From Guillardia theta CCMP2712 (lineage: Eukaryota > Protista > Cryptophyta): DNA of 41,123 bases. Position 1 is the stretch's first letter, and every line of letters starts with the position of its first letter. Where the stretch lies: NCBI RefSeq assembly GCF_000315625.1, contig NW_005434433.1, positions 1 through 41,123 of the forward strand, given 5' to 3'. Shown piece by piece: positions 31-41,123 of this stretch. The notes beneath the pieces were generated by a model, which did not search any database, had not been told where the DNA came from, and saw only the letters and a program-made list of their open reading frames with translations. The translations under genes were made by a program, and so were the position numbers.

Positions 31-732
31 GAGACAAGACTTTTTATATCGCAGATCCAAAAACCCATAGGACATTTCTCCCAGGGGGAAGAAAACCTCC
101 CTTGACCCCCCTGTTTCTCGACGGATCCTGCCGGCCGGGCCCGTCAGTAGACCGACTGCAGCCTTCAGCCCCGCCTCAGACCCCCTGGAGGCCCGCCAGG
201 AGGCTAAGTGTCCGGAGATTGGCCGGGGGCCTGATCTCTCCGGGCGGCCGTGACCGGTCAGCGGACCGTGTCAGCAGGCCCGTGACATGTCAGCCGGCTG
301 ACAGGGGCCGTGACCCGGCTGACAGGCTCACCTGACCGGTCACGTGACACATCACGTGACCGAGACAAGACTTTTTTATATCGCAGATCCAAAAACCCAT
401 AGGACATTTCTCCCAGGGGGAAGAAAACCTCCCTTGACCCCCCTGTTTCTCGACGGATCCTGCCGGCCGGGCCCGTCAGTAGACCGACTGCAGCCTTCAG
501 CCCCGCCTCAGACCCCCTGGAGGCCCGCCAGGAGGCTAAGTGTCCGGAGATTGGCCGGGGGCCTGATCTCTCCGGGCGGCCGTGACCGGTCAGCGGACCG
601 TGTCAGCAGGCCCGTGACATGTCAGCCGGCTGACAGGGGCCGTGACCCGGCTGACAGGCTCACCTGACCGGTCACGTGACACATCACGTGACCGAGACAA
701 GACTTTTTTATATCGCAGATCCAAAAACCCAT
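31..732 (+). repeat. Left array: ~2.1 tandem copies of a 332-bp GC-rich unit
   Basis: GAGACAAGACTTTTT starts at 31, 362 and 694. Copies are near-identical (T5 vs T6 in the T-tract). The match ends at AAAAACCCAT (732). Confidence 0.97.
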
Positions 733-3683: not shown

Positions 3684-3691
3684 AAGCAAGA

Positions 3692-3816: not shown

Positions 3817-3872
3817 CCAGGGCAGGGCCATGCCTATAAAACCCCACAACGGCCCAGGGGACGGCAGAAACC

Positions 3873-8610: not shown

Positions 8611-8699
8611 TCTATTCATTCCAGAAAAAACATCGGGGTCCCCATTAAATGAAATAAATTCAATTAAATAAATTAATTCATTAATTCATGGGCATGTAT

Positions 8700-19100: not shown

Positions 19101-22100
19101 GGACATACAAAGCGCCGTCAACCCTTCGCTGACCTCGGTGCAGTTCACAACCATTGATCTCGACGTCACCAACCCAGCTGGCGACATCTGCTTGCGCACC
19201 GACTCCACCTGCCTGCGGGACAGCCAGTCGCTCGGCGGGTTCTCCACCCCCGTCGACCTTGTGCAGTCCGTCAGGGGTGTTGACATCTACGTGTTCTACC
19301 GCGACGGGACGGCGGGGAGCCGCGATCCCAATGCGGACGAGTTCTACTCTGCGGAATACCCCAGGACGAGCACGAGATGGTACCCTGCCTGGGTCGACTG
19401 CTTCAATGTCACGGGGGTGAACAAGAGCCACCTGCTGTCATGGACGGGCTGGGATGCGGAGACGGTGGGATCGGTGCAGAGCACGCTGAACTCATGGTAT
19501 GCCGGGACGGGGCAGCAGCCCAACTTCGCCGTCCTCTCCAACGAGGCAATCTGGAGCCGGTACGGGGCAAGGCCCACTGGGGTCTCTACACGCTGCAGCA
19601 CCGATTCCTGCACTACGATCCTGGGATCGGTGAGCCCCTGCCCTGGCAAGGTCTGCAATGTTGCCCGCGACAACAGCCTCGTGCATGCCATTGCCCTGCA
19701 TCTGCAGAATGCAACGGAGATCTTCTGTGCCAGCAGCGCGACGGACGCGCTCTCCAAGTGCCCGCTGAGGTCGGTGAATCAGAGCGTATTGGCAGAGATC
19801 ATGGACAACCTCTGGATCTGCAAGAGTGACTGCGCCCGCGTGCCGTTGCTCAAGTATATCGGAAAACACCTCTACCGCTACAGGAGGATCGACGAATCCG
19901 TTCTTGGCTTCACAAGCTCTGACAGGAACTACATCGGCCTCACAGGGCAGAGCTCAGCGGCCAATGGGTATACACAGAAGGATGCATTCCGGCTCATGCA
20001 CTTTCTTGTGTCAAGGCAGATCACGTCTGGCAACGGCCTTCTCCCTTCCGACCTGTACAACCAGCTGTGGATAACGCCGGATTTCCTCAGCCTTGCATTC
20101 ATGGACACCAACGACAAGTATCCAGACACAACGCTGAACCTCTACGAGCTGAACAGCTACAGGGCACAGGCCGAGACTATGCGTCTCCAACCCCTCGACA
20201 AGTGCATCAACCAGATTGTCAAGACCACCGAATGCACACCGGCGTCACACAGGGAGAGCCTCAAGTCGTGCCTTGCGCAGTACAAGCGGAAGTCTGCAAG
20301 CGTCGCTGACCTCGAGCAATCCGTGCTAACCAAGCTCACGGCTGCACAGGTGACCTCGATGCACAGCCTGCACTGGGCCAAGGCTGCGAGGCCGTCGCGA
20401 GATCAATACCTCGATTGGGTGCTGAGCGATATGCGCTGCGAGGAGACGCTGCAGTCCGAAGCCGTTTGCTACAGGACCTTCGACGGCTACGTGCTCTCGC
20501 TCAACCCATGGCTGGGCGGGGGCTTCAACATCAGGGATGCCTGCGACACGGTGGTGCTCCCCAATGAGTTCAGCACCGTCATCAGCGGGGGTTGCAAGAC
20601 CGGGATCTCCGCCTGCACGGAGTACAACTCCCTGGTCTATGCCCAGTGCATCACAAAGAACAACCAGCCCCCATCCCGCATCGACATCCTGAGCACTGCA
20701 GGCAACAACCTCTGCAACCGCGGGATTCGCGTCAACACAACCTGCCTGCACGAGCAGGGGAGCTTTGGCGGCGGGTCCGGGACGACGATGGAGGATCTCT
20801 ATACACGCCCGGCCACCTCCATGCCTTACTCGGGCATCTTTGGCTCGAATCCAAACCCCGCGTTCCAGGCCCGCTCGCCACAGTTTGGCATCCTGAGGCA
20901 GTCGCAGATGGACATCGGGGGGTCGCTCCTCGTCGCCGACCTCGCCCCGCTGCCCGACGGCGTCACGCACAACCTGCTGCCGAAATGCCTGCCCCTTGCC
21001 TATGCAACCAATGCGGATACCTCCCCGAGCACCCCAGGGATCGACCCATGCGCATCCAACAACCTCGATTGGCTCAAGACCTACGCCATCGATTCCCGCT
21101 CGGATTACGATCTGAATGCGGCCGAGCTTGGCAGCGCATCGCAGAACGGGGCGGTGTCCTGGGACTGCCCTGTGAGGGAGATGCACTACTGGGGAGGATC
21201 ATCGCAGTCCTTCCGTCCCAAGGCACCCTACGGGCCCCGTGCAGCGACGATGTTCTCGGAGACCAACCAGATGGGCGGCACGGTAGGGAACGGGATGTCC
21301 AACCCCATGCAGCCCTTTGGAACCACGATCCCAGACCTCGCAGACCCATTCTTCGTGAGCGAGATCTGCAGCTGCTCCTCGAAGTCCGACTGCTCCTTCC
21401 TCACCACCGACACGGCGAGCAGCTGTGGGCTGTACCAGACGGTCGATCTCCTCACCGGGAACCAATGGAAGACCAAGCAGAGCTACGCGGGAACTCAGGG
21501 ATGCAAGCGGAGCCTTGACTGGCCCAACACCAAGGGCGTCCTCCGCGACGGTACCGACCTAGGGAGTGCGGCACAGAACACAGACTGCCCCGTCCACGAT
21601 CGTCTCAGGGAGTTCCAGCTCAGGTATCTCCCTGTGAGCATCACGGCGGATGCCGGCATCACCACCCTGGACGCGGGAGGGGAATGCCACACAGGGCGCC
21701 TCGTCCGCGTCCCAAGCACCGTTCCCATCGGGGGGAGATGCCACCGGTACAACTTCTCACACCTCGAGTGCAGCATCACAACCCTCATCGCAGGGAAGCC
21801 AGTGACGGACACCTCCTTTCACGCCCTCGACGTCCCATCCCCAACGGACTTTGTCACGCAATTCCAGGCCAATCATAGGAGGACATTCCAGGAGTGCCAG
21901 CCCTCCCCACAGCTCAGATCCTACGTCGACAGAACCGACAACGCCAGGAACCCCGTATCCAGCAGCATGAGACAATTCACAAGCTTTGGGGTTCCCGTGA
22001 GGCTCTCCCTCTCCCGCACGATGGCACAGGACCTCCGAAGGCAGATCTGTGGCAATTCCATCGATTGCCCGTTGCTCGACAATGCCATCGACCCGAGCAA

Positions 22101-25100
22101 GTGGACCGTCGACAGCTTCCTGCAGGCCTACCTGCAGGATTTCACCTCCCTCTTCCAGATACAAAGCAGCGCCTCCATCTCCACCCCGGCGCCGCCCAAT
22201 CCCGTGAATGACAGCAAGTTCTGGGACAGGGAATGGGTCTTCTGCTCTGACAGCGACCGGTACTCCAAACCCTACTCCAACAGGAAGTGCTACGGATCCA
22301 TCCCGAAAGAGACCTGGCTTGACCCTAAGCAGCGCTTCGGTGCGTGCCGCGATGCCATGTCGGCGGCCCCAACCACCAGCACGATGATCCCCATACGCAT
22401 ATGGACGCTCGACTCTACGATGAACAACCTCTCAACGCACGTCGCCAGCCTCCTGCAGAGGATACAGGCTGCCAACTGCAAGGCCGCGGGGGTGTGCGTC
22501 GAATCACGCTTCCTCTACAACCCGTCGGCCTACAGCATATCCAACCAGGCCTTTGTGACGCAGACGGTGCTGGACTTCTACCAGTCGGTGAGCAGCGAGG
22601 CGTGCTCCTCGGTGTACACCACGCAGGAGATCCAGGCGGTGATCGCACAGAACAACAACATGAAGAAGCAGTGCGCGGCAGAGTTCCTTGTCCCTATCTA
22701 CAAGCTGTTTGGGGACCTGAGGCAGATCGTTCAGACCATTGTCAAGCTCGTCTTCTACGCAGGGATGATGGGGTTCAACTTCATGCAGCTGCTGCTAGGC
22801 ATCAACTCCGATCAGGTCATGCCACAGGTGATGCATTGGTTCAACATGTTCATCAACGAGGCAAGGGTGCTGTTTGAGCAGATCGGGAACATGGTGTTTG
22901 AGCTCATACGCTCCGCTCCCTTTGGGGATCAGCTCATGAAGATCATCAAGATCATCTGCACCATCATCAACTGGTTCCTGAACAATTTTTTCTTCCCTGT
23001 CATATGCCCCATCCTGCACTTTGTAGGTGACGTGTGTACGGGCATCGGGAATGCCCTGAAGACAATCCATGACATCAGCATCATCGGGATCAAGCCCTTC
23101 ACCTGGATCGTCTACCAGATATACCTGGATGTAGGCAACAAGCTCAAGTCGATCGATTGCAATGCCAGGAATGTCCTCAAGTGTGACATTGGGAATGCCT
23201 TCCCACCTCAGGCGGAGGATGGGACCCTGCCGACGCCCACCCGCTGCTGGGCCAGCTACATCACCAGCGTGAGCGACGGGGCCCGCCTCTCCTGCTCCGC
23301 CTCGGACACCTGCCTTCGCGCCACGGCCTCGAGCGGGTCGGACACGATGGTGTGCGACGCATGCCCCTACGGCGGATCCACCAGCACGGTGGCAAGGTAC
23401 GGGTGCGATCCCATACGGAAACAGTGCATGTGCAACGTGATGCAGACCTACGAGACGCCGTGCATGACGCACGAGCAGTGTGTCAACCAGATCGATGCCA
23501 CCTGCGTCTTCATGAACAGCGACATACAGCCGACCTTTGGAAACATCCCGTGCGCACAGTGCACAACGCAGCCGATGTGCATCCTGCAACCCGGAAAGAC
23601 CTACGGCTCTTGCTCCTGCTTCCTCACGCGGGTGGACCCACAGGGCTGCTCCATCAGCGATGTCACCAAGGCGGTGGCACCGAAGCTCTCCGGCCTCTGC
23701 CTTGCGCAGGTGACCACCTCCATGGGTGGGTTCTCGGCATCCTCCAGCGCGACCTACACGATAAGCTACAACAACCTCCTCGCCACACCTTGCTACAACA
23801 GCAACTACGACCAGGTGTATTGCTACAGCGTGTTCAGCTCGTTCTTCAGCTTTGCACCGATGCTCGTCTCCATTGGCATCAGCGGCATGTCTGGCGCCGG
23901 CGCCTCGGGCCCTTACGGCCGCCGCCTCCTCGGTTTGGACTCCCCAGAGTTCTACAGCCACGACGCCACCTGCATGGACGCCTACGACGAATACCTCCTC
24001 TCCAACCGCACCACCCGCGTGTTTGTCTCTTGCATCACCAGGTTCGCTGCAACCTACGATGTTGCAAGGCGGCACGGCATCGAGGATCGCATCCCTCCCA
24101 ACATGTTTGTGAGCCTCACCGACCTGATGGAGACCATAGGGAATGATCCCACCGCCCTCCTCCTCCTGCTGTACAATCCCACCCTCGTGCTGGAGCTTGG
24201 CATGCAGACCAGCATCTTCCAGCGCTTGCACCGCTACTACCACGTGTGGACGAGGGTGTTCCACGACCTCTACTACGAGATCGCAATCCACGGCACGAAG
24301 AGGAACAACAGCCTTCATTATCGCATAGATATCGACGGCGGGATGTATATCCACGGTGACAACATCAGCGAGACCACGCTCCTCCTCCTCAACATCCTCC
24401 ACAGCCTCTCCTCCCACTTCAACCGCTCGGGGGTAGACGGCCCGCTGGCGATCCAGAACCAGCTCGCGATGAAGCACATCCTCAGCATCGCCGCCGATGG
24501 GCCTTTTGCCATGCACCTGCTCGAGAACATCACCAACGCATCCATCGGCAGGCACCTGCTGCAGACCTCATGGCAGACACAGAGGAGCGAGGTGAAGCGG
24601 TTCACCGCCTCCACCTCCCTGAATGACGGCATTGTCGAGCCAGTTGGGGCGGCGACCAGCAATGCCTGGGTGGACAGCCCCTTTGCATGGCCCGTGAATT
24701 ACGACATCCCGCAGACCCTCGGGTCCTGTGCGCTCCTGTCCAACACACTGACTCTGACGAGGAACGCCTTTGGCAACGTTACACTGTTCTACACCCAGGG
24801 CTCCCTCCTCGCCGCCAGCCCCCGCAAGGTGGTTTCAGGCAGCTGGCCCCTAAGCGGCCTGCCGCAGACCAAGACTGTGCCACCGCTGCAGAGGCCCGTC
24901 AACGGGGATTGGATCTCGACAATGGTCTTCACTGTCGTGTCCGCACTGGAGCACACGCCGTTCAATCGGCAGTTCTTCTACAATGCGCTCATGGCATCGC
25001 CTGGATTCCTGCAAGACTTTCTCCGGTGCGACCGGTCGGCCGTGATGCTGTGCTCCAAGCACAAGTACACACTGCTGGTCTCCGGCATCGTCGTAGGGAT

Positions 25101-25740
25101 ACTGCTCGCGGGGACCACTGCGGTGATCACTGCCTTCCAGATCCCCTACGTGAGCACATTCCTCTGGGGCACGTACCCAGTCATCACCAGCTACTACGCC
25201 TTTGGTGTCTCCCCCTTCTGCGCACCGATGATCCCGACGTGCTTCATTCAGGACTTTGTGGATATTGCCAACGTGTTCTTCCCCTCGTCCTTCCGCTTCC
25301 CCGACAGCCTACAGACCTCACCTGGGTGCCTCAACGACCCGGCGGTGGTCAATAGGGAGGCATGCATCATCCCCTGCAGCGACGCGCCGTTTGAATTCAA
25401 TACGTGGGAATCCGAGATCGCATGGTGGACTTGCTTCATCTCTACCGACCTCTGCAGGTCTCTGGGGGCGTCCATCGCTGGATTCCCGGCCGCGGTTCAG
25501 TTCACCTCGCTCAACCGGCACATATCTGTCAAGGCAGCCATCATCGATGCATACCAAGAAGACATGATCAACGCACAATTGGTTTGCGGCACGCTGAATA
25601 TCTGGCGGGTCATACCAATCTACATCATCATATTCTTCCTCCTCTACGTCATAGGCCTCCTCGTGAGCTTCCCGGTATTCCTCCTGAGGGAGGTACTGAA
25701 GCTCATCATCGCGACAGTCATAATGACACATATAGATTAA
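13011..25740 (+). CDS. Giant (~4200 aa) cysteine-rich membrane/surface glycoprotein, true 5' end unclear
   Basis: Coding-like across two 100-N gaps (frame across the gaps is unreliable). Many small Cys modules and NxS/T sites, an internal hydrophobic helical block (~22690-23130), RRLL (~23920) and RHLL (~24550) motifs, C-terminal TM helices. No signal peptide or in-context ATG. Confidence 0.85.
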
Positions 25741-25815
25741 AACTAGATATTAGAATTAGTCAACCACAGGGGAGGGGCCTTTAAAAGGGGACCGCACGTG
25801 GGGGGCTTCCATCGA

Positions 25816-26781
25816 ATGTCCGAATCCTTCCCCCTCCCACGCATACGCCACACGGAGCTCCACAACACCAAGAAGACATACACCATACTGCTCGAGGTTG
25901 TCCGCCACAGCAGGCAGATGCGGGATCTCAGAGGCATCCGCTTCTTCTATCTCGGGGAGGGTGTCTCTGGCAAGTGCTTCCTTGCCAAGCAGGAGGGGCA
26001 TGCCTTGGTGATCAAGCTCTTTTCAAGTCCAACGCTCTTCATGGAAGAGACCCAGATCAACCGATACCTTCTCGATCAACTCTCTGACTACAGAGAGAGG
26101 GACCATATCGGCACCTGGTCGGGATTTGGGATGTTGAAGAAGGAATACAACCGAATCATGTACGCCATCCTCCCCTACCTCGGGGTGCCGACACCGCGTT
26201 TCATCTCATTCTATCAACCACACATGCGGGAGAAGCTAGTAGAGAGCTTCCAGAGGATCTGCCGCCAACTGGCCCGCCTGCACTCCCTCTCGGTCTATCA
26301 CACCGACATCCGAAACCACAACATCGTCATCAACGAGGATGGCTCTGCTTATCTCATCGACTGGGGGAATGCTTTCATCCCAAAGCTCCACCCCAAGGCT
26401 TACAACAAGGACGGGACAATATCCCACCTGCCCAATCCGACCCTTTGCCCCGAATCCATCAAGCTCAAGATATCCTGCATGACCAAGAACACCATGGATT
26501 ATCCGATCGTGTGCAGGGCCAATGCCTTCACCTACCACGACCTGGAGGCCACGGACTTCTACGCACTGACGATGGTGTTTGTCAAGATCTGCAAGGCATG
26601 CATCCAGAACGATATACACCTGCGGGATGCCATCGGCGGGTTCCTGCAATGCATCTACGAGAATTGCAACAACAACCAGGACATATTGAGACCATTCATA
26701 CTGGAGGCGATCATGGAGCACTTCGACGCACACCAGTGCATGGAATTCTTCAAGGCATGGAGTATATTGAACTCGAATTGA
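25816..26781 (+). CDS. Ser/Thr protein kinase
   Basis: Gly loop LGEGVSGKC, VIK lysine, helix-C Glu, HTDIRNHN catalytic loop, LIDWG. AATAAA directly at the stop. Confidence 0.92.
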   Translation: MSESFPLPRIRHTELHNTKKTYTILLEVVRHSRQMRDLRGIRFFYLGEGVSGKCFLAKQEGHALVIKLFSSPTLFMEETQINRYLLDQLSDYRERDHIGTWSGFGMLKKEYNRIMYAILPYLGVPTPRFISFYQPHMREKLVESFQRICRQLARLHSLSVYHTDIRNHNIVINEDGSAYLIDWGNAFIPKLHPKAYNKDGTISHLPNPTLCPESIKLKISCMTKNTMDYPIVCRANAFTYHDLEATDFYALTMVFVKICKACIQNDIHLRDAIGGFLQCIYENCNNNQDILRPFILEAIMEHFDAHQCMEFFKAWSILNSN

Positions 26782-26787
26782 ATAAAT

Positions 26788-27351
26788 CTACGCGTAAAAC
26801 TCTGGGTTCGAGCTGTAATAGCACGCAAGCTGCAGTGCGATGCAAACGTCATCCTTCATGCCTCCCACCTTTCCACTGAGCGCCATCTGATCCTTGTTGA
26901 ACACACTGGCCGCGCTCTTGAACTGGTAGGAGTAGATCTCCAGCTGCTCGCGAAGCCGACGCTTCATGCCCCTCGGATCGCGGCTCACGAAATTCTCCCA
27001 GAGATGCACCCTCCCCTCCCTCAGCAGTGAGTTCAGCATCGTGCACATCGCATGCTTGATCTCATGCGTGGTGAGGACGCCGTAGCGCTGGGCCTTGTGG
27101 TCAACCCTGAATCTCACATTCTTCATGCCGTTGAAATGGCGCTGGTGATACTCCGCCTCGAACCCAAGGTTCCGCTCCACCATGACAATGATCTCGGATA
27201 CTACAAAGGCCGTGTTGCAATCCCTCAGGCGCTGCATGTGCTCGGCGAGGAGATCGAACTGCTTGTCTGGCTCTGCAGTGCAAGAGGTTAAAAAATGCAT
27301 CAAAAGGAAGCGTTCACCCTTGCATCCGGAGAGGACGTCCATCCCGACAAT
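26788..27351 (-). CDS. Terminase large subunit, final exon(s): RNase H-like nuclease C-terminus
   Basis: MVERNLGFEAE and LSGKVGGMKDDVCIALQLACY match herpes-type terminase (VEGN; SGK..DDLxVAxxMAxY). Acceptor CTGAC..TTGCAG| at 27352. Probable in-frame 45-nt intron at 27273-27317. Confidence 0.9.
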   Translation of the reverse strand: MVGMDVLSGCKGERFLLMHFLTSCTAEPDKQFDLLAEHMQRLRDCNTAFVVSEIIVMVERNLGFEAEYHQRHFNGMKNVRFRVDHKAQRYGVLTTHEIKHAMCTMLNSLLREGRVHLWENFVSRDPRGMKRRLREQLEIYSYQFKSAASVFNKDQMALSGKVGGMKDDVCIALQLACYYSSNPEFYA

Positions 27352-27365
27352 CTGCAACGGCAAGA

Positions 27366-27761
27366 ATGTCAGTGCCACAGAGAGACATCCTCTTCCACAT
27401 CCTCTACAACAACGACATGAAGACAACAATGAAGCTCTGCCGGGAATCTGCACAGAGGCTTGCCAACATATTGAAAGACCCGCTCCCCTCCAAATTGCTC
27501 GACATCGCCAGCAGGAACGAGCACATGGCGCGGTGTGTGCTGATCTTGCTGCTCAATGTTGACATGGGTCTCAAGGAGACATTCACAAAGCCCTACGTCA
27601 TCGAGGAAGCCGAAGTCACCCTCCAACCCCTCTGCGGATACAAGGCCCCCGTGTTTTTCAAGGCGATCGACAGCACTGTGATCCCAAACTTCCTCCGAGA
27701 CGAACTCAAGACCACCATCACCTTCGAGCAGGAGATCCAGGAGATGTATCAATGCTCATGA
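27366..27761 (+). CDS. Hypothetical protein nested in terminase intron
   Basis: 131-aa ORF (start could be 27417) wholly inside the intron, antisense to the terminase. Confidence 0.7.
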   Translation: MSVPQRDILFHILYNNDMKTTMKLCRESAQRLANILKDPLPSKLLDIASRNEHMARCVLILLLNVDMGLKETFTKPYVIEEAEVTLQPLCGYKAPVFFKAIDSTVIPNFLRDELKTTITFEQEIQEMYQCS

Positions 27762-27777
27762 GCATGGCATCGCCTGG

Positions 27778-27785
27778 TATTTAAA
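27778..27785 (+). promoter_or_regulatory. TATTTAAA promoter box
   Basis: 25 nt before ATG 27810; the same motif at similar spacing recurs at six other genes. Confidence 0.65.
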
Positions 27786-27809
27786 CTTGCAGACCCAGTT
27801 CAGTTAACC

Positions 27810-28490
27810 ATGATATCGGGTCTGAAAGACTTCACGTCCTTTCTTGCGAGCACCATTGACGATGCAGAACGTGACATTTGCAAGGTTGTGCTCCACCTGG
27901 AGTACAACAGGGAGAGAATCTGCAATGCTGACCTTCAGCCACTGATTCTAGACACTAAGGTGGTCCTGTTGATCGTCGCTTCCTGTACCAGCTTCAACAT
28001 CCCCGAGAAGACCATGATCTGGGAAACGATGATCAAACACCAGGGCACATGGCAAGAGTTGGTGCTCGAACTGAAGAAGCACGAGGATGATGCCCAGTGC
28101 TCGGAACTCTGCAAGGACCTCGACGAAATCCTTCTCTATCTCGATATGTATCGACATGGAGTTGACCTGAAGCCTGAGGTTTTCCAGACTATCTCGGAGC
28201 TGAACACCTTCACGATGCCGTCAAACGGCAAGGTCCCCGTGTGCATCATCAATGCCCTGCACCTCATGCAACAACAGCATAGGTACATGCCTGAGCACAT
28301 GGTCCAGGATCCGACGTACGGTGATTTCATCAAGCTCCTCGCACTGGCCAACAACATCCCCGTGCGCAAGAGCACAATGAGCAAGGTCCAAGATGCTGCC
28401 TGGATGGTTGTCACCTTCGTTGTGAAGCACTGTATCGGATTCACGATATATGTGTTTGAAAAGTACACCCTCAGACACATCCTTTGGTAA
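27810..28490 (+). CDS. Hypothetical protein nested in terminase intron (C-terminal hydrophobic segment)
   Basis: 226-aa ORF with its own TATTTAAA and a downstream AATAAA (~28533), all within the intron. Confidence 0.8.
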   Translation: MISGLKDFTSFLASTIDDAERDICKVVLHLEYNRERICNADLQPLILDTKVVLLIVASCTSFNIPEKTMIWETMIKHQGTWQELVLELKKHEDDAQCSELCKDLDEILLYLDMYRHGVDLKPEVFQTISELNTFTMPSNGKVPVCIINALHLMQQQHRYMPEHMVQDPTYGDFIKLLALANNIPVRKSTMSKVQDAAWMVVTFVVKHCIGFTIYVFEKYTLRHILW

Positions 28491-28563
28491 CCCTGCGGAA
28501 TCGCGCAAAGGAAATCCCACTGGTGTTTGCAAGAATAAAACACGCACACATCCCTGCACTTAC

Positions 28564-29121
28564 CGTGATCAACCCCTTGTGCCTCACGATGCTCACCACC
28601 GCGTAGTCACTCTGCGGGCCACCCGCCGCTGGGTCCACCACAAGGTAGATGTTCTGGTTGCTGACAAACGGGGGCGCCTGCTGCGACAGCATGGCCTCGA
28701 TGTCCTTCACCCTGAACGCCTGCTGCAAAGAATCGAACGCCAGCCCCGCCAGCTCCGACTGGATGAGGTCGGGCCTGTCTTGCATCACCACCTTCAGCCT
28801 CCTGTGCCTCTCCCCGCTCTGCCACTGCGGAACGAGATGCAGCATGTGCACACACTCATGGCTCTTCCCGTCCTCCTTGCACTGCTGGCAGGCGAGCTCG
28901 ATGCACTTGACGGCAAAGAGCGGGCGGCCAGTGTCGGGATCGCGCATCTTGATCAGCCTCGTGTAGAAATTGATTTCGGAGGTGAGCGTGGAGATGCAGA
29001 GCAGGGAGGTGCTGCCAATCGATAGGATTGGCGCGACGGTCTCATAGAAGAAGGTCGAATCGCAGTAGGCTGCCTCCTCCAAGATCAGGCAATCCCCGCC
29101 CGTGCCCTTGGTTGTGCCAAT
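28564..29121 (-). CDS. Terminase large subunit, internal exon: Walker B, coupling motif, Zn-binding segment, first nuclease Asp
   Basis: KGTGGDCLILEEAAY (cf. herpes RGQDFNLLFVDEANF), CIST, CQQC..C.H, YLVVDPA. Bounded by acceptor CTGACACTGTCTGTTTTGCAG| (29122) and donor GTAAGT. No ATG start. Confidence 0.9.
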
Positions 29122-29239
29122 CTGCAAAACAGACAGTGTCAGAGCCAACGCGCACACCAGCCGTCCACTTCCACCCTTATATCACTCGGCGCTGCATCGT
29201 ATTTAATACCGCGTAGCAACACACAAGCACTACAGAATC

Positions 29240-29554
29240 ATGTCTGAACCTATCAATATGAGGCAGACACTGGAAGATATCGCCAGCAAGCTCGACATTG
29301 TGTCGAGGCATGGTGATCAGGACGAGTTGATCAACGCTGGTATCACGGCAAGGAACCTGAGGAATGCAAAGAAGTTGAGCGACAAGCTACAGCATGCACC
29401 CAACACCAAGGAGCTCATCGATTCGTGCCATTCGCAGTGCAGGAATCTGATCTCCGCGCTCTCCGACAGGGAGAATAAGCAAAACGTGCGTGCGATCCAC
29501 CAGAATCTCATGCGAATCGCATCCCCAGGAAAGCAGAAGAAGACGAAGCACTGA
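29240..29554 (+). CDS. Small helical basic protein
   Basis: 104 aa; TATTTAAT at 29200-29207; C-terminal KQKKTKH. Confidence 0.7.
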   Translation: MSEPINMRQTLEDIASKLDIVSRHGDQDELINAGITARNLRNAKKLSDKLQHAPNTKELIDSCHSQCRNLISALSDRENKQNVRAIHQNLMRIASPGKQKKTKH

Positions 29555-29677
29555 GCGATACACCGTTGATACAAGATGCATTAAACTTGTAATCGACCCC
29601 ATCCCCCCTCTGACCCCCCCCTCTTGGGGTCTATATAAGCCCTCCCTCCCCCTCCCCCTCCCCCAACCCACCAGACC

Positions 29678-29992
29678 ATGGACTCTAAGCCCATGCTTTT
29701 TCACAACAACCTCCGCAGGCTTGCCCGCACCCTGGTGCATGCCAGGCACCCCACCAACTCGCAGACTGCAGAGTTTGTCGAGGAGCTCGAGCGTCTCACC
29801 AAGACGACCTACGAGGGTGTCACCGGGCTGTCCAGTGAGGACCGTCGCAGGTGCATTGACATTGCGACAGAGAACATGTGGCTGCTGCGCTACCTCGAGC
29901 TCTACACGCAGACCAACGCGGCGCGCTTCAAGCGCTCGACGCACGACTACGTCGGGCGCTTGCTCAACCTCTCCTTGGACGTTGTCTTCTAG
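29678..29992 (+). CDS. Small hypothetical protein
   Basis: 104 aa; TATATAA at ~29632, ACCATGG start context, AATAAA at ~30016. Confidence 0.75.
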   Translation: MDSKPMLFHNNLRRLARTLVHARHPTNSQTAEFVEELERLTKTTYEGVTGLSSEDRRRCIDIATENMWLLRYLELYTQTNAARFKRSTHDYVGRLLNLSLDVVF

Positions 29993-30063
29993 ATTGCACT
30001 GAGCCCTAAACATGCAATAAAGAATCTTAACCTATAAAAGCCTTGTCTTTGCAACGCTCACAA

Positions 30064-33000
30064 ATGCATCCCGCCGATGCAATAAACCACGCGTCAAACC
30101 TGAGCCTCGACTACGATGGCATCCGCATCGTGTATCCCAACACCACCTTTGGGCCAGGGCTCGGTGAGGATCTCGAGGCAGAGGCGGAAGCACTGCTCGA
30201 TGAGATCTCCGCAATGCCGATCCTCGAGATGGTGGAGAGCGCAGAGCCAGATCACGAAGAGCTCAGCGAGCACGTCGAGGAATGCCTAGACACGGAATTC
30301 CCGCAGCTCGACGCAGTCTACGATGCATCCATCGAGAAGGACATCCAGATGCTTTGGCAGAACGTTAAGGGGGTTGCGCTCCTCACGGACCGCCCGTTCC
30401 GGATCAGGGCTAGCAGGAAGACATTCGAAGACGTCGACTCCGAGGAGGAATTTAACGAGCCCGACAGCAAGAAGCGGATGGGGCCCGAACCGGAGAACCC
30501 ACCGGAGGATATCGTCTATGCTAACGAGGATGAGGAATTCAAGCAGAGGATGCAAAAACGCATCGACAACCTGAAGCGCAAGCAAAAGCTCTACTGGAAC
30601 AACGACGTGAACGACCAGGCCTACTATCTGGCCTTGCAGATCATAGCGGCCCAGAAGGCCACCAGGGGGTATCTGCAACAACTGCGCAAGGCGCGACGTG
30701 AAAATCCGGCTATAGTCGATATGATGAAGCAGCTGCTCGATGTAGAGATCCAAAACCTGCGATCGCTCCGCAAGAAGCAAGAGGATCTCATGCAGATCTC
30801 GAGTGTGAAGGAGCAGAACATGCTCATCAAGAAGATCCGTTTCTACGAGAACCTCTTGCGATCTGCCACCCAGCGTGTGGACATCCCGGATTTCCTCAGC
30901 CTGCAGAAAATGGAGGAGCAGAGCAAGATGGCCTTCTTCGGCGTCACACTGCCGCCCAAGGTTCAGGGCCTTCAACCCTCCGAGATCACCAGCAAGCGGT
31001 ACGATCTCATCCCGAACAAGCAGGAATTCCCAGAGGGTCCAGATGGCATCCTGCAGTTCTTGGAGTCCAAGAAGCCAAAACCCATCGAGAACGAGTGGCT
31101 GCCATCCGGCATCTACACCCTCATCCACCTCGAAACGCTGCGGATGGAGTTGAACGAACAACCGGACGAAGACCCGTTCTGGGAAAAGGAGTTGCAGGAC
31201 GCAGCGGAATTCCTCCGTAACGAGATCTCGCAGCATGACCTCGATACATACTGCTCCCATTACGGACAGGTGATGCGCAACATGCGGAATTCCATCTTCC
31301 GCGAGGTGAAACTCCTGCGCAACCACTACCTCCATCTGCACGAGAGCGCCCTTGTCCGATATCAACAGGCCAACCTCGACGGGACGAGCGATTTCTACAA
31401 CGAGTGCTTCCAATACCTGATCAATTGCCAGAATCTCGGGGATACCGACAAGGCCAAACTGATCAAGACGATCACGAAGAAAAACCTGACGTTTTTCATG
31501 CAGAATTTCCAGGACACACGCTGGATGGCACTGATCGTGGGCGACAAGGAACTGTGGAACAACAGGGTGCGTAAAATCAAGCGCAACTCGAGCGAGATTG
31601 CATCCGAGAAGTGGGACCTCTTTGTGATGGCCAAGACCAAGGCCATCGAGGCCTGCATCTCCAAAATCACACAGGCACGGACGATCCTGCAGCTGCACAC
31701 ACTGCAGAACTACGATCGGACGCAGCTGACCACCCCGACCAAGGTGCAGGCCATCATGCTGAGGGGCATCATCGCCATACACAATGCCATGACACAGGCA
31801 CCGGTGAGGATGAACATCCAGGAGCTCATGTCTGACGTCAACATAGCCAACCTCCCCTTCTTCGGGAGAAACCAAGGCATCATGCGGGCACTCCGTGGTT
31901 TCAGCCCCTTTGTCTTCATGCTCAAGCAAAACGACATCATAGAGAGCCTCATGCAAAACTTCAAGGGCATACCCCCGCCAACGATCCCAAGCGCCACGGC
32001 GAAGCTCAAGGACCGCGTGGAATGCCTCAAGAACCTCGATCGGTGGATGCGGCGCCTCATGCCGATCTACACCTTCTTCAACCTGCAGAACAACACCTAC
32101 AAGGATATCAGCAAGTTATTCCCGGAGACCACAATGCAGGCCTCGAGCCGATTCGAGGCGTTCAAGCAGGCGGTGCTCGATCTACGGCAGCAGACGCTGG
32201 AGCGCTACAAATCCATCATGGACTCTAATTACATCTACCTGCGCAACATTCAGCCGGAGGCGGAGGAGCCGGCAGAGAGCATGCAAGAGGCCGAGGAGGT
32301 GCAACCGCCCGAGAGCGAATTCACCGAGCAATCCGAGTTCAGCCTGGGTGCAATCATCGGGATGCCAATCGTTCTGCAGAGAAGGAAGAAAAAGGTGAAG
32401 GTCGCACGCAAACCGGCATCGACAAGCAGGCGACACCAGAGAAACATGCAAAGGATCACTCTAGCACGATTCATGTCCTACTGCAAGGCATCCAGGTCGA
32501 TGCTCAAGGATCTCTTTCAGACAGGTATCCTTGTCCTGACACACACCAAGATGAAGACACAGAGGCTGCAGACCTTCATCCCTTACTTCGGGGTGCAGCA
32601 AGCGGGCTGCACGCAGCTGATCATACAGAGCTTCACCTACGCCCTCTCCAACACGTCGGCAGGGCATCGCAAACTGCTCGAGACCCTCAATGATTACTTC
32701 AAGGCCAATCTCGATGCATTCAGCCACACCATGTATTACATCCTCCTGGCATTGAACAACATACCGAATGCATCGAACCTGCTCAAGAACAAGATATTCC
32801 AACTTCAGGAGCAGGTGCAATCCACGCTGGTGATTACGAACAGCCTGACAACAGAGATTGCCATGAATAACAAGCAAAAGAAGGACTTCCTGCTGAAACT
32901 CAACGCATCCCTGACAGAGTACCAGCGATGCACCAACACACTGAACCGCGTCCTGCACCAATTCTCGGTCGAGCAATCCAGCAACATCCACCTCCATCAC

Positions 33001-36000
33001 TTCCAGACGGCTTGCATTCAGGTGTTCCTGAAACGCCTCATGTATCTGTCCCCCGAGATGAAGGTCGACGTCGACAACGAGTTGGAGATGCTGCATTCCA
33101 TCATCTTCAATGTGGAGCACCTGCCCAAGTCCGCAGCGACACTCCATCAAGCGACCCTCGGTGTGCCTTTCACAGCAGATTCAACATCTGAGATAGAGCC
33201 CGAAGAGGCCGAGACAGCATCTGCGGCAGATGCCACCTCTGAGCAAGAGTCAGAAGAGGCCGAGACACAAGCTGCCACCAATGAAGAGGAGGACGATGGC
33301 GTCGATGTCAATATGGACCCACAAAAAATCGAAATAAAGAAGCATGACAATGCTGAAGGTTCCAATCCTGAACAGCTGCAGGAACAGAAGGCAGCACAAT
33401 TCAATGGTTTCTTTGTAGTCCGGCCCAACAAACCGTTCTACCCCTTGCTGGACCAGGAGGATGCAAGTTTCGTCGGTGGCTCAGAAAAAGGGCTGTACAT
33501 TGCACAAACCATACAGCAGACCTACAATGACCTAAAAACATTCATCCGAACTACAGTGCTGAACATAGTCCAACAGAACGTCATCCCCTTTATGCAGGCT
33601 GATCAACAGATGCTCCCAGCCTTGCAATACGTCCATGCTGAAGAGGTGCATCGTCAGATCCTTGACTTCATGAACATGCATGAACTAACAAGTGATTTGA
33701 CCACACTCAGTCAGCGGATGAAAAGGTTCAATGCTTACCAGATAGTCATGAGGATGGGTATCGAACCTCCAAGAAGTAACTGGGTGGTTGGAGTTGTCAA
33801 GCTGTGGCACAGCATCTTACTCATGCTCCTGCGATTCGACGCAAAACTAAACGTAAAGTTCAACGAGATCCCCATTTTCACGGGTAGAGAGATGACATTG
33901 AGCAACATCAATCCGCAACTGAGCAAGCACGACGTCCTTGATCTGATCTTCGACCATTTCGCATACGATTGCTGGGTGCCAACAAACAGGCCAGCCCTAG
34001 GCAACCCACCCGTCTTTGCGCAGGCCGGAGCGCACAACAAAACCTACCTATTCTACAACATGCAACCCATACAATGGAATCAAGGCGAGGATTCATCCAG
34101 CATACAACTGATCTTCAATTATGCTGCAGATGCCAAGGTGTTCAGAGACACCATCATGCGGATGAGCGACAGGCATGCTGCGAAGTTATTCATCGACGGC
34201 AAGCCCGAGGTCTCGGAGGATGCAGACACCCTCGCGCTGCTGCCCGCCGCATACACAAAGGTATTCGTCAACAAGCTCGAGACCGCAACACACGAGCTTC
34301 TGAACGACTTTGCCAGCATCAACGAGAAGTACCTGATCGCATTCGGCATCAACAGGACGACGATCAACGAGCGCTTCAAAGCACGGCAGGATGCCTGCTA
34401 CAGGCTTGGGAACTCTGTACAGTTTACGACGTTCACCATAAAGAACCGATTGCACAACATGCTGTTCCAAACGCCGAGTTTCAAGGAGAACCTGCGGGCT
34501 GAGCTCGATCACATCTGCGACATTGTCAAGACATTCACCATTGAAAATTTCGCACCGTTCGTCAACCGGATGCAAAAGCTAGAACAGATCCCTACGTTGT
34601 ACGCCGAGCCCAAGCCCATGACTTGTCACACCTACGTCATGTACGAACGCATGAAAAACGGTTACATGCAGCACGTGCTGGACAAGCAGGACGATTTCAA
34701 TGACGTGCATCGACTCTCCGCCCTGTGCCTATTGCAGGAGTCGCTGATCGAAAGGAGGAAGAACATGGAGAAGCTCTTCCCGATCAACCACACCAACTCC
34801 GAATTCACCTCCAATCTCGAGTTCGACACCAAGCAAGAGCTCTACGATCACCTCTCCCACGAGCTCAAGAAACACCTCGAGGTATTCGTAGAGCAGAACA
34901 ACGTGGTGGAATCAAGGTACGATGCATATGCTTGTGCTCTCCCACGGCTTGATGCATTCTCACAGGTAAACCAATACCCCACTCCCATGCAACGATACAA
35001 CGACACACAATACAGCCCACACGTGGGGCAGGCGATCTTCGACCAGGGATCGCAAACCGGCCTGCCGTTCAACAGGTTCATGTCCAACAGCGACCCAGAG
35101 AGGCCGTACCAGGCACGCGAGGACATCCAGAAGATCTCGGTCGTGCACTGGGGGCAGCGCAAGCTGTTCGTCGCGGAGATGTCGTTCCTCTCGGCACACT
35201 ACACCCCATCCATCACGACCGTGGTGTACGCCGGTGCCGCGCCAGGGACACACTTGGTCGAGCTCATGCTGAAATTCCAGAAGCTCTCATGGGTGCTCGT
35301 CGACCCCGAGCCCTTCCATCACAAATTGCGCGATTTCTACTCGTCGAGCGTGACGCTCATCCAAGACCGCTTCACCGACGCGTTCGCGGCCCAATTCGCA
35401 GGGAGGAACGACGTCCTGTTCATCTCGGACATCCGCACTGCCGATCACAACCGCGACAACAAGGAGGAGAACGAGCGGAAGATTGCACAGGACATGCAGA
35501 ACCAGAAGCGATGGTTCCGGATCATGAATCCAGTGGCCGCACTCTTGAAGTTCAGGCTCCCCTGGGACAATAGGATGACAACCTACCCCATGGGAAAGAT
35601 CCAGTATCCCGTCTGGGGGCGCGTGTCCACGACGGAGACACAGCTTATCGTGCTTCAAAACGCTCCCGACACGGTGTACGACAACAAGAGGTACGAGAGC
35701 AAGATGTTTTATCATAACACGATCGCGAGGGTGGGGAGATACCTGGAGGGTATCGAGGATACAGGCATCCAGTTTGATTTCTGCTATGATTGCACGGCAG
35801 AGATCCAGGAATGGAAGAACTACAACCAGTGGCAACTGGCCTATGAGTGGAGCCAGCACGTCCAAGCAAAGAAGATCAAACCGAAGAGCATGCAGCGCGA
35901 GTGGGAGAAGTTCCAGGCAGACTTCTGGAGACGGACCAGCATCCCGTCGCAGGCAGGCAAGCTCTCCGTCGCCCTGGGAGGGCAGAACACCGAGTTGATC

Positions 36001-36129: not shown

Positions 36130-36140
36130 ACGGTTTTATT
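36125..36140. terminator. Back-to-back polyadenylation signals of convergent genes
   Basis: AATAAA (36125-36130, +) and TTTATT (36135-36140, -) each contain the TAA stop of the respective gene. Confidence 0.65.
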
Positions 36141-37591
36141 CCTTATCCCCTACCACGACTACCGATTTCTTCACCGCTGTCCCCACTGCCTTTGCAACCT
36201 GCTTTTTCACCTTGCTCTGCTGCACCTTTTCTGGCACCATTGATTCCACCACGGGTGCGGAGACACTATCCTTGCAACAGCTCACCGACGGCAGCTCGAA
36301 CCTCTTTTTGGGTGCTTCCATCGGCGCTTGCACCGACGGCAGTTTGAAGCGCTTTGCACTGCTCTCCAACATCACACCCTCGGCATTCTCCATGTCGTCA
36401 TCCTCATAGGCCCAATCTAAAGGCATCGGACAGAAGTTTGCCTGCAGCAACGCACCGCGCATAAACACCTCGTCGTCTAGGAAGTAATGCATGGCATTCA
36501 TCCCGAACATCATCTTGTAGTGCTGCTGTGTTGTCCCCACGTACCATACGGACTTGCTCTGTTGCAGTTTCTCGTACTCCACCGACGAGGGATCCATCGA
36601 CAACTTCCTCAGGTCCACGCGGTATGGCATCACATCGGGGATTATCACAAAGAAGTCACGATCAATCTCTCCACCCACGATCATGCACGGTGTGAAATCC
36701 ACCTTGATGATGCGCTTGTAGAAATGATTCAAAGTCGCGGTGAGCAGCGGAGTGTCGTTGGGCATTGGCATCATCCCCAGCCTGAAGCACAGCCGGTCTC
36801 CCGAATTCAGCTCGATGTGCCGCCAGTAATTGATGAGGTCCTTCGTGTGCCCCTCCACATTCATGCTCGTGACGTGATTCACCGCCAGCATCACAGGGCT
36901 CATCCCCACCTCGTGCATCCCGCCCTGTTTCTCCGACCCAGCACACACCCCAAAGGGGACCACGGCATTCAGGAAGATCGCCAACACATCCCTGATCTCT
37001 CGATCCTTGAAAACCTTGAAGTCGGAGTTCGAGACCGTCTGCCCAAGGATGTCCATGAGGAAATTCCTCCACTGTGCGTCACTCAGCGATGGGGTCCAAT
37101 CATCGAGCCTCACCCGCCTCCAGACATGCTGCAGGCCAAAGAGGATGTAATTCAGCGTTGGCAAATTGATGAATGCAGTCAGGTGCGTGCCGCTGTCCTT
37201 CACACCCTCGGCAGCCTTCACGGTGACACCCAGCGTGTTCTGCACAGACCGCAGCCTCAGCGACCAGGCGATGTCACCGTAATCCACCGCGTGCGAGATG
37301 CGCACCATCCCCTTGCCGTCGCCAATCGGTGGCAGCATGATCTCGGGCACAATCTTCTGTATCCTGTACGGGACATTGAGGTAAGATGTCTGGGTGCTGA
37401 GCCTTGCGGAATCCCCATACACGTAAGGGGTGATGCCCCCCCAGCAACGCGTTGTTGTAGTTGATCCGCGCATCGGGAGTCCCATTGAGGCCATATGGCA
37501 GACCCTCCGTATTAAGGGGCGGCAATGGCCCGCTGTTCATCACCACCTCTGGCATACGCGGATTGCCTAGATTCCCGTAAAAGTCAGACAT
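36136..37591 (-). CDS. ~484-aa protein interrupted by one extra base in a G7 run; possible capsid triplex-like protein
   Basis: ORFs 37274-37591 and 36136-37494 join as NNALLGG-ITPYVYG if G7 (37436-37442) is G6. TATAAAA lies upstream. The triplex idea rests only on the VEG..NYW..SGDRL pattern and genomic context (weak). Confidence 0.7.
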
Positions 37592-37783
37592 TCCTGCAAT
37601 TCTCTAGGGTACACTGAAGGGCAGCTCTTTTATACACTCGTAACCGCATGTACCCTCATATTATCTACCATCTTTTGAGCATCGCCGGAATCATCCAAGA
37701 TACGCCACAAGATGGCGAGTTTGCAGAAGACCGCATCATCCCATGGCACACAGCCTACGCGTGAGAACAAAAGGCATTTCTTG

Positions 37784-37791
37784 TATTTAAA
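37784..37791 (+). promoter_or_regulatory. TATTTAAA promoter box
   Basis: 25 nt before ATG 37816, the same spacing as the 27778 box. Confidence 0.65.
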
Positions 37792-37815
37792 TCTGCACAC
37801 ATCTTCCTGACAAGG

Positions 37816-38271
37816 ATGATTCGATTCCAATCTTGCACATACGACATCCAATGCGAGGGGAAAGACGTAGCCATTCTCACACTAAGAGATCCAACTGAAT
37901 ACTTCGTCTTGGCTCTTGAGACATCGACAGGCAATATGGAAAAGCACCTCAGTGGCTTGAAGCATTCAGAGAACATCCAACACCTTGCAAACAAGGGGTT
38001 CCGAACTGATTACGTCCAAGCTCTGAGAGACATGTCCCCTCAAGCATACCCCGCTTTTCGTCAAAAGCTGTTGGACCCAACATGGAAATTCGAGTATCAC
38101 CAAGCCCTGTGCGCTCACAAAGATATCCTCAAAAAGGCCAAACGTTACAAGAAGGCCATGAAAGAAGGGAGGTACGTTGATTGCATGGACTTGTCACCGA
38201 TGCATATGGACAGTCTCAACAAGACCAACAACTTCATTGAGAAGGTCATTGCTGAAACATTTTTTGTTTGA
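37816..38271 (+). CDS. Hypothetical protein
   Basis: 151-aa ORF with upstream TATTTAAA. Confidence 0.75.
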   Translation: MIRFQSCTYDIQCEGKDVAILTLRDPTEYFVLALETSTGNMEKHLSGLKHSENIQHLANKGFRTDYVQALRDMSPQAYPAFRQKLLDPTWKFEYHQALCAHKDILKKAKRYKKAMKEGRYVDCMDLSPMHMDSLNKTNNFIEKVIAETFFV

Positions 38272-38370
38272 TTGTACAATATAGCATTGGATGTGATAAA
38301 CATCGTTAAAACAAAAAAAATTGTTCGCAAACGCTCGCTCACCTTGTCCCACCACCCCCCACACCACATT

Positions 38371-38700
38371 ATGTCATGGGATTCCAACGAGGAGATCATC
38401 AGCTATCTGATCGCGGCGCAGATCTGCCCACCGCTCCCCATGGTGATGCTGCACGAGGCAACCGGGGAGAACAAGATCTGCAACTCCCACGACCTCCTCT
38501 TTGAGATGACAAGGCAGTGCTTCCAACACGCGGAGGCTCTCAGCGACGAGACGCGGAACCGCATGACGGCACAGAAGATGCAACTCTACGACGGCCTCGT
38601 CGCAGCCCTCTGCAATATCGACACAGGGATGCCAAGAGATGCCGACCCCGCATCCTGGAGCATGCAATCGCGGCAGACCGTCTACAACCTTTTATTTTAA
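38371..38700 (+). CDS. Hypothetical protein whose stop codon is at the start of the right repeat array
   Basis: ATG at 38371 (MSWDSNEE) after a C-rich leader; TAA 38698-38700 coincides with the first bases of the repeat. Confidence 0.65.
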   Translation: MSWDSNEEIISYLIAAQICPPLPMVMLHEATGENKICNSHDLLFEMTRQCFQHAEALSDETRNRMTAQKMQLYDGLVAALCNIDTGMPRDADPASWSMQSRQTVYNLLF

Positions 38701-40762
38701 AAAAGTCTTGTCTCGGTCACGTGATGTGTCACGTGACCGGTCAGGTGAGCCTGTCAGCCGGGTCACGGCCCCTGTCAGCCGGCTGACATGTCACGGGCCT
38801 GCTGACACGGTCCGCTGACCGGTCACGGCCGCCCGGAGAGATCAGGCCCCCGGCCAATCTCCGGACACTTAGCCTCCTGGCGGGCCTCCAGGGGGTCTGA
38901 GGCGGGGCTGAAGGCTGCAGTCGGTCTACTGACGGGCCCGGCCGGCAGGATCCGTCGAGAAACAGGGGGGTCAAGGGAGGTTTTCTTCCCCCTGGGAGAA
39001 ATGTCCTATGGGTTTTTGGATCTGCGATATAAAAAAGTCTTGTCTCGGTCACGTGATGTGTCACGTGACCGGTCAGGTGAGCCTGTCAGCCGGGTCACGG
39101 ACCCTGTCAGCCGGCTGACATGTCACGGGCCTGCTGACACGGTCCGCTGACCGGTCACGGCCGCCCGGAGAGATCAGGCCCCCGGCCAATCTCCGGACAC
39201 TTAGCCTCCTGGCGGGCCTCCAGGGGGTCTGAGGCGGGGCTGAAGGCTGCAGTCGGTCTACTGACGGGCCCGGCCGGCAGGATCCGTCGAGAAACAGGGG
39301 GGGTCAAGGGAGGTTTTCTTCCCCTGGGAGAAATGTCCTATGGGTTTTTTGGATCTGCCATATAAAAAAAGTCTTTGTCTCGGTCACCTGATGTGTCACG
39401 TGACCGGTTAAGTTGATCCTGTTAGCCCGGTTCCGGCCCCTGTCAGCCAGTTGACTTGTCACGGGGCTGGCTGACACGGTCCCCTGACCGGTCCTGCTCC
39501 CCCGAGAGATTAGGTCCCCGGCNNNNNNNNNNNNNNNNNNNNNNNNNNNNNNNNNNNNNNNNNNNNNNNNNNNNNNNNNNNNNNNNNNNNNNNNNNNNNN
39601 NNNNNNNNNNNNNNNNNNNNNNGTGACCCGGCCAGGGAAGCCTGTCAAGCGAGGGTTCCCGGCCCCTGTCAGCCGGACTGACAATGTCAACCGGGCCTGC
39701 TGGACAACGGGTCCGCCTGACCCGGGTCTCGGGCCGCCCCGGGACCAGATCAGGGCCCCCCGGCCCAATCCTCCCGGGACAACTTAAGCCTCCTGGCGGG
39801 CCTCCCAGGGGGGTTCTGAGGCGGGGGGCTGAAAGGCTGCAGTCGGTCTACTGACGGGCCCGGCCGGCAAGGATCCGTCGAGAAACAGGGGGGTCAAGGG
39901 AGGTTTTCTTTCCCCCCTGGGAAAAATGTCCTATGGGTTTTTGGATTCTGCGATATAAAAAAGTCTTGTCTCGGTCACGTGATGTTTCACGTGACCGGTC
40001 AGGTGAGCCTGTCAGCCGGGTCAAGGCCCCTGTCAGCCGGCTGACATGTCACGGGCCTGCTGACACGGTCCGCTGACCGGTCACGGCCGCCCGGAGAGAT
40101 CAGGCCCCCGGCCAATCTCCGGACACTTAGCCTCCTGGCGGGCCTCCAGGGGGTCTGAGGCGGGGCTGAAGGCTGCAGTCGGTCTACTGACGGGCCCGGC
40201 CGGCAGGATCCGTCGAGAAACAGGGGGGTCAAGGGAGGTTTTCTTCCCCCTGGGAGAAATGTCCTATGGGTTTTTGGATCTGCGATATAAAAAAGTCTTG
40301 TCTCGGTCACGTGATGTGTCACGTGACCGGTCAGTGAGCCTGTCAGCCGGGTCACGGACCTGTCAGCCGGCTGACATGTCACGGCCTGCTGACACGGTCC
40401 GCTGACCGGTCACGGCCGCCAGGAGAGATCAGGCCCCGGCCAATCTCCGGACACTTAGCCTCCTGGCGGGCCTCCAGGGGGTCTGAGGCGGGGCTGAAGG
40501 CTGCAGTCGGTCTACTGACGGGCCCGGCCGGCAGGATCCGTCGAGAAACAGGGGGGTCAAGGGAGGTTTTCTTCCCCCTGGGAGAAATGTCCTATGGGTT
40601 TTTGGATCTGCGATATAAAAAAGTCTTGTCTCGGTCACGTGATGTGTCACGTGACCGGTCAGGTGAGCCTGTCAGCCGGGTCACGGCCCCTGTCAGCCGG
40701 CTGACATGTCACGGGCCTGCTGACACGGTCCGCTGACCGGTCACGGCCGCCCGGAGAGATCA
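38698..40762 (-). repeat. Right array: ~6 tandem copies of the 332-bp unit, inverted relative to the left array
   Basis: AAAAAAGTCTTGTCTCGGTCACGTG recurs with 332-bp spacing (38714 to 39046). A 100-N gap (39523-39622) makes the copy number uncertain. The match ends at GAGAGATCA (40762). Confidence 0.97.
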
Positions 40763-41123
40763 CATAGCGTTGTCGCTCTCAACTGACCCCTCTGGTTTCC
40801 AATAGTTTTCTGTGGGGGTATCCTTCCACACATGTGAATAGCAAATGGCAGTTGGGGTCTGGGGTGGGTCAGTCGGCTGGGAGCTGATTCAAATTGGTTG
40901 GGACCTGTTTAAGGGGGTAGGGTACTTCCTGGTAGCAAATAATTGTACCAACAGTACCAATTTTATGGTACATATTCGAGTACTGTTAGGAAAACTTGTA
41001 CCAAAATAGTTTATGCGGTACCTCCCCTGTTCAAACTATGATGCTTTGGACCCACCTGTTTCCCAGTGAAAGTGCCTTCTCCGATGGGGTCAAGTTTTGG
41101 ACCCTACCCTGCCTCCGACCAAC

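Follow-up and report, generated by a model that had tools for sequence, protein, structure and literature searches.

Position 29,122 on the minus strand of the 41,123-nt stretch of Guillardia theta CCMP2712 DNA analysed here (the window) is very probably the point at which splicing enters the 3' half of a mirusvirus terminase (the DNA-packaging enzyme) whose gene is split; the Walker A half likely resides in another part of the virus genome and would be attached by spliceosomal trans-splicing. This proposal is built on directly observed features, namely the site itself, two exons, a nested antisense gene, the absence of a 5' half, a conserved acceptor, a matching AAG/GT donor in relatives and a non-colinear order of the halves in one relative.

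The 3' half is composed of two minus-strand exons. Exon A (28564..29121, 186 aa) encodes TTKG, Walker B (CLILEE), a Cys/His-rich stretch and the first nuclease motif VVDPAAGG, followed by a GTAAGT donor at 28563, and exon B (26788..27351, 187 aa) encodes the remaining nuclease (VERN, GKVGGMKDD) and the stop codon. Exons A and B alone matched nothing in Pfam or PHROGs, and a profile of three sequences matched no solved structure. That the 3' half, with its Walker B and RNase H-like nuclease, is homologous to large terminases was recognised with a family profile of the window exons and relatives, which matches T4 gp17 (E 1.9e-5) and HSV-1 pUL15 (E 1.7e-4), and the relative P0042 matches the PHROG terminase large subunit (E 8.3e-10). 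The exon A homolog search returned 53 longer proteins of 328-432 aa, none of which is a full-length terminase, and the homologs reaching the exon start mostly begin with Q-[IV]-x-TTKG, in which the Q corresponds to the acceptor CAG. Neither the single sequence nor an alignment of exon A retrieved a relative from viral_contigs, and the N-half profile found 15 distant loci there (35-41%), 11 of the 13 looked at having an uninterrupted terminase ORF. A protein kinase gene (25747-26781, plus strand; PF00069, E 1.7e-8) converges on the terminase stop.

A preliminary description of this DNA had reported a branch/acceptor signal opening an exon four residues before a KG motif, and exactly this was found. 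A CTGAC branch motif at -21, a pyrimidine tract and a CAG acceptor run from 29142 to 29122 on the minus strand, and the exon opened at 29121 in phase 0 starts with IGTTKGTGGDCLILEEAAY, reading I-G-T-T-K-G with Walker B CLILEE downstream. Both terminase acceptors share the -21 spacing of CTGAC, and by inspection both satisfy the combination of a CTRAC branch motif with at least 9/12 pyrimidines, which occurs at 4 of the 2,241 YAG sites on the two strands of the window; the signal at 29122 is more than chance would supply. The metagenome scan for relatives yielded 273 confirmed loci, the best 80 of which were used, and 71 of these 80 (57 distinct contexts) carry AG at the base equivalent to the 29122 acceptor. 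The acceptor is not peculiar to the window element: the clade conserves it at the head of the terminase 3' half, for which the stretch 29122..29142 is likely the trans-splice acceptor.

The arrangement of the two halves differs among the relatives. In four loci among the best 80 of 273 (L036, L040, L044 and L050), the N-half precedes the C-half by 1.2-3.5 kb on the same strand. In all four, which are the loci with a complete N-half, it ends at an AAG/GT donor in phase with the window acceptor, so that the split comes immediately ahead of Walker B and uses canonical splice sites that are conserved in the clade. The layout of these close relatives permits ordinary cis-splicing, which is a point against trans-joining. 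In L080 the order is reversed, the N-half following the C-half on the same strand at a distance of ~8 kb, and cis-splicing could not join such halves on a linear template. Upstream DNA extends for 9.9 kb or more in 14 of the best 80 of 273 loci, and 12 of these 14 lack the N-half; within about 10 kb a missing Walker A exon is the normal state of the clade. A quick version of the tree, with rows of <140 residues and duplicates left out, groups the four cis loci as a single nested subclade (100% SH-aLRT), with the window as sister to the larger group that contains them.

No Walker A exon had been noticed on either strand in the preliminary description, and its absence from the 41 kb was confirmed by motif scan, by comparison with relatives and by profiles with a control. 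The motif [PA][RK][RQK]xGK[ST] occurs in none of the six frames of the window, the relatives P0042, P0043 and P0045 match the window at exon A solely, and degenerate DNA scans of the window for donor and Walker A motifs gave chance-level matches only. N-half profiles of 120 and 204 sequences, run over 1,696 stop-to-stop segments in six frames, reached best E values of 6.6 and 0.5, respectively. In a positive control with pieces of 8 held-out N-halves, recovery at a threshold of E<0.05 was 36/36 for 30 aa, 51/56 for 20 aa, 62/76 for 15 aa and 36/116 for 10 aa; since pieces of 15-30 aa are mostly recovered, only a gene built almost wholly of ~10-codon exons could escape. A Walker A half hidden in cis as short exons, the arrangement that the preliminary description had set against its own proposal, is unlikely, as none was detected with a control sensitive to ~15 codons, down to which size this candidate was ruled out. 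The Walker A half is not adjacent to the 3' half over 41 kb of both strands, in agreement with the earlier view that the upstream exon lies outside the window. Its absence is sufficiently explained by the size of the window element, since ~38 kb represents ~15% of the average genome, 265 kb, of mirusviruses, which are large viruses of unicellular eukaryotes.

That the two halves belong together is supported by P0042, P0043 and P0045, which are 71-73% identical to the window over exon A and have an uninterrupted ATPase, with SYPSKIGTTKG read through without a break. The N-terminal part of these proteins matches 727 proteins; among the 120 listed, all (120/120) contain TPRRFGKT, and only P0042, P0043 and P0045 continue to Walker B. 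A search from the sister clade of the window gave 1,099 N-half proteins, 117 of the 120 listed ending in SYPS-KV and 0/120 reaching Walker B. The only organism-named N-half among the matches listed is P0113 from Rhodomonas salina, which together with the virus group points to a protist, perhaps a cryptophyte, as the likely host. No N-half attributable to the host of the window stands among the top 120 of 727 and the top 120 of 1,099, most rows of which bear no organism. On balance the partner Walker A exon is probably still present in the host, and it could quite conceivably have been lost.

Exons A and B are separated by a cis intron of 1,212 nt in the nuclease region (27352..28563, minus strand; GT-AG, CTGAC at -21), with GT after the same residue in 71/80 relatives (best 80 of 273). 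Within it lies an antisense gene of 131 aa (27366..27761, plus strand) that has homologs in relatives; an antisense homolog is found no more than 700 nt past exon A in 63 of the 70 loci with enough downstream DNA, the 10 others among the best 80 of 273 being too short. According to the available text of PMC12768974, MING-1 genes occupy an intron whose position in the terminase nuclease is fixed, and the window likewise has a small conserved gene in an intron at one fixed nuclease-region site. Judged by position only, the intron is likely the MING-1 intron and the nested gene likely MING-1. A second antisense ORF inside the intron (27810..28490, plus strand) yielded no homolog.

According to the proposed mechanism, the 3' half would be transcribed from its own promoter just upstream, and a short leader would carry the branch point. 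A separate Walker A transcript ending in ...SYPSK would be paired with the 3' half by the spliceosome to give the product SYPSK-IGTTKG, as in the uninterrupted relatives, while the MING-1-type intron would be removed in cis. A TATA-like element revealed by motif search at 29177..29181 (minus strand), 60 nt upstream of the acceptor, is a possible promoter of the 3' half. TATA-like words at -130..-50 of the acceptor are present in 26 of 51 distinct relatives (from the best 80 of 273), whereas 200 shuffles averaged 15.6 and never exceeded 24, kinship being uncorrected, and two windows farther upstream showed no such excess. The signal is modest, varies in its distance to the acceptor and is present also in 1/4 cis loci; the enrichment hints at a separate promoter for the 3' half, and these words may instead serve the divergent gene. 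Three divergent plus-strand ORFs lie directly upstream of the acceptor (29207-29554, 29639-29992 and 30031-36129), none of which is a terminase. The last encodes 2,032 aa and has at its C terminus a PF01358 domain (poxvirus VP39-type cap methyltransferase, E 1e-21), and a stand-alone homolog of this PF01358 protein is located upstream of the terminase acceptor in L082.

Trans-splicing, which had been raised in the preliminary description as one way of joining the exons, emerges as the likely mechanism in view of a metatranscriptome precedent. The available text of PMC12768974 (Medvedeva et al. 2025) reports mirusvirus terminases split near Walker B, with trans-splicing confirmed by metatranscriptomes, halves about 30 kb apart in one example and on opposite strands in some cases, and a split site that differs among clades. 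These trans-spliced terminases of Mirusviricota (Okeanovirales, Styxvirales and cryptic orders), as far as that text describes them, resemble the window in being split just before Walker B at canonical spliceosomal sites and in having a non-adjacent Walker A half and a gene-bearing intron at the fixed nuclease site. The window differs from them in that its 3' half lies in a 38-kb repeat-bounded piece from species-labelled runs instead of a metagenome-assembled genome, the joining is predicted, and the nuclease intron has a second ORF. The split, trans-spliced mirusvirus terminase has already been published, and the window is a probable further case and a modest addition. Cryptophyte assemblies are among those with mirusvirus signals in the accessible part of PMC10827195.

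A relation to the herpesvirus terminase intron, placed by the preliminary description within about two codons of the site, holds in part. The family profile sypskvktlrgvggdvillEE aligns without gaps to ASSHNTNGIRGQDFNLLFVDE of HSV-1 pUL15; the match is weak over this stretch (2.3 bits), with RG and Walker B as its anchors, and in this gapless local register the window split falls between N and T of HNTNGIRG, two codons before GIRG. The boundary of HSV-1 UL15 exon 2, which we take to lie at GIRGQ, was positioned from the junction of duck enteritis virus. In the text available from PMC3079670, the mapped exon 2 start of duck enteritis virus reads S-L-R in phase 0, corresponding to the GIR position, and the donor as printed there gives no clean translation in phase 0. 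The window site lies ~6 nt (two codons) upstream of the alphaherpesvirus exon start; the distance was right, but the positions are not identical, and the codon and phase of the UL15 intron are not those of the window, UL15 exon 2 beginning 6 nt downstream.

Other intron positions are found close by. L069 and L071, together with proteins P0055-P0123, represent a sister lineage whose terminase is split 4 nt downstream of the window site in phase 1, and 58 N-halves among the 120 listed end in the matching KIG, while further introns occur within some 50 nt in the distant L008 and L014. The region just before Walker B is rich in intron positions, and with the split site, the phase-1 site 4 nt away and the uninterrupted P0042/P0043/P0045, a span of two codons shows three states, for which intron sliding or independent gains may be responsible. 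The suggestion of an ancient intron position common with orthoherpesviruses draws weak support from the 6-nt distance, but the sites differ, a second site lies 4 nt away and some relatives are uninterrupted. An ancient position common to mirusvirus and herpesvirus terminases is thus weakly indicated, and the window and herpesvirus introns may possibly have a common ancestry with sliding. Some mirusvirus sites match alloherpesvirus sites exactly, exact matches being reported in the available text of PMC12768974 for alloherpesviruses only, and the spliced terminase structure common with herpesviruses has already been remarked on in that of PMC13595911.

Orthoherpesvirus UL15, as far as described in the available portions of PMC13595911 and PMC3079670, has two exons and a ~3.5-kb intron with antisense UL16/UL17. 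It encodes a homologous protein (the pUL15 profile match above) and is split, like the window, between Walker A and Walker B; unlike the window, it is cis-spliced and colinear, with the downstream exon start already noted. Alloherpesvirus terminases (e.g. SalHV-1 ORF72/80/82, in the available text of PMC13030845) have three exons and share with the window a three-part coding with exons dispersed among other genes, and trans-splicing has been hypothesised for them in the available part of PMC12768974.

Another reading is that the element is a decaying relic, a silent host fragment that has lost its Walker A exon and in which nothing is joined today, its origin being compatible with trans-splicing; this is judged possible but rather doubtful. 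In its favour, a triplex-1-like capsid gene assigned by homolog model (36136..37591, minus strand) occupies two reading frames in the window, with a G-run at the break near 37,445, and is a single ORF in relatives; the independent contig of run X3 agrees with the window there with 0 gaps, and the break is probably not a sequencing error. The triplex-1-like assignment is of low confidence, a model of the homolog L068 (pLDDT 51) having given a best Z of 6.9 and an rmsd of 7.0 over 201 aligned residues against herpes capsid chains, presumably triplex 1 by chain length, with Foldseek rows at E>0.3. In the relatives this gene stands head-to-head with the terminase 3' half, whereas in the window it is 7 kb off on the same strand. 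Near-silence in one raw-read RNA run also fits a relic: X9 (same species label, ~6% of the run sampled) gave 11 reads over 15.4 kb, with 0 in the acceptor bin and 0 joints. Few conserved genes are present, those conserved relative to 944 kb of related loci being the terminase exons, the nested gene, ORFs 12313 and 10068, the methyltransferase domain and 36136-37591. The lack of a host-attributable N-half among the top 120 of both searches points the same way, but those rows mostly carry no organism. Against a relic, no damage is seen in either terminase exon, either acceptor or the donor, and the 2 differences between X3 and the window inside the terminase exons are both synonymous, as are 9 of all 14 coding differences (5 non-synonymous), which are too few for a selection test. 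Very long ORFs also remain open (2,032 aa, and 3,745 aa through two N gaps).

The longest of these belongs to a giant cysteine-rich ORF pair (12810-25740, plus strand; 708 and 3,745 aa) with hydrophobic segments at its end, for which no Pfam match and no homolog in 95 loci were found. An ORF at 3840-5183 (plus strand) has DID and SGKGWHIY motifs, which to us recall an archaeo-eukaryotic primase, and has no Pfam or PHROG match. Inverted arrays of a 13-bp unit (3689-3819 and 8498-8890) surround a 4.7-kb block that might resemble a replication origin or an invertible block, and an AT-rich repeat stretch lies past the right array. Of the HK97-fold major capsid protein (MCP), portal and triplexes that characterise Mirusviricota, the low-confidence triplex-1-like gene is the one candidate in the window, neither MCP nor portal having been recognised there by searches that had no dedicated MCP/portal query.

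Far less probable is a multipartite endogenous mirusvirus made of ~40-kb pieces bounded by inverted 332-bp arrays, in which the terminase halves would lie on different pieces and RNAs from different DNA molecules would be joined. Repeat search identified a left array of 2.1 copies (31..732) and, inverted relative to it, a right array of ~6 copies with one 100-N gap (38698..40762); the two are 98-100% alike and enclose ~38 kb of unique DNA. Reads were placed on 25700-41123 only, a region covered near-identically by contigs of runs X1 (kind unrecorded) and X3 (guessed to be DNA). In both runs, depth over the 332-bp repeat and the right flank greatly exceeds that over the unique DNA, and the X3 depth is 140 over 25.7-29.6 kb and 70 over 29.8-38.7 kb, depth not being equal to copy number. 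The flank 40763-41123 has ~16-20x the depth of the unique DNA in X1 and X3 alike and is therefore itself repeated. On the other side, no second piece was seen, the clade includes long continuous contigs of 200-233 kb (L019 and L062), and a 29-nt word of the repeat is absent from viral_contigs. The arrays join the unique DNA at different phases of the 332-bp unit, and the ORF at 38272-38700 has its stop codon within the first repeat bases of the right array, to which insertion or recombination into a host satellite fits equally. That the upstream exon resides on another segment or was rearranged through the repeats is conceivable, but its absence within ~10 kb is normal in the clade, and the repeats are not needed to explain it. 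If the repeat-bounded piece were one segment of several, the herpes-like lineage would include a large DNA virus with a segmented genome; a non-exhaustive literature search found no report of such a virus, and the word 'segment' does not occur in the available text of PMC12768974.

Around 29565-29850 the X3 depth halves, and a variant contig of X1 departs from the window at 15 sites in 29731-29818, 14/15 of them within 29731-29799; there may be a second copy with different upstream DNA near 29.6 kb. Equally improbable is a long cis intron, with the Walker A exon upstream on the same strand, past the right array or in such a second copy, and ordinary splicing across antisense genes as in UL15, because, although this layout is seen at 1.2-3.5 kb in 4/80 relatives (best 80 of 273) and the depth step and variant contig hint at other upstream DNA, the intron would have to be longer than 11.6 kb and to span both a same-strand gene and a repeat array, the four cis loci form a nested subclade without the window in the quick tree, and the halves of L080 are in reverse order.

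With trans-splicing as the preferred reading, the relatives display near-cis layouts in a nested subclade and distant or reversed layouts at one identical splice site, which bears on the interconversion of cis- and trans-spliced introns. The published evidence comes from metagenomes and metatranscriptomes, whereas here species-labelled runs carry a copy of the element, and RNA-seq and ChIP-seq exist. Provided that the partner exon has survived, a laboratory host could serve for the study of viral trans-splicing and of the MING-1 intron.
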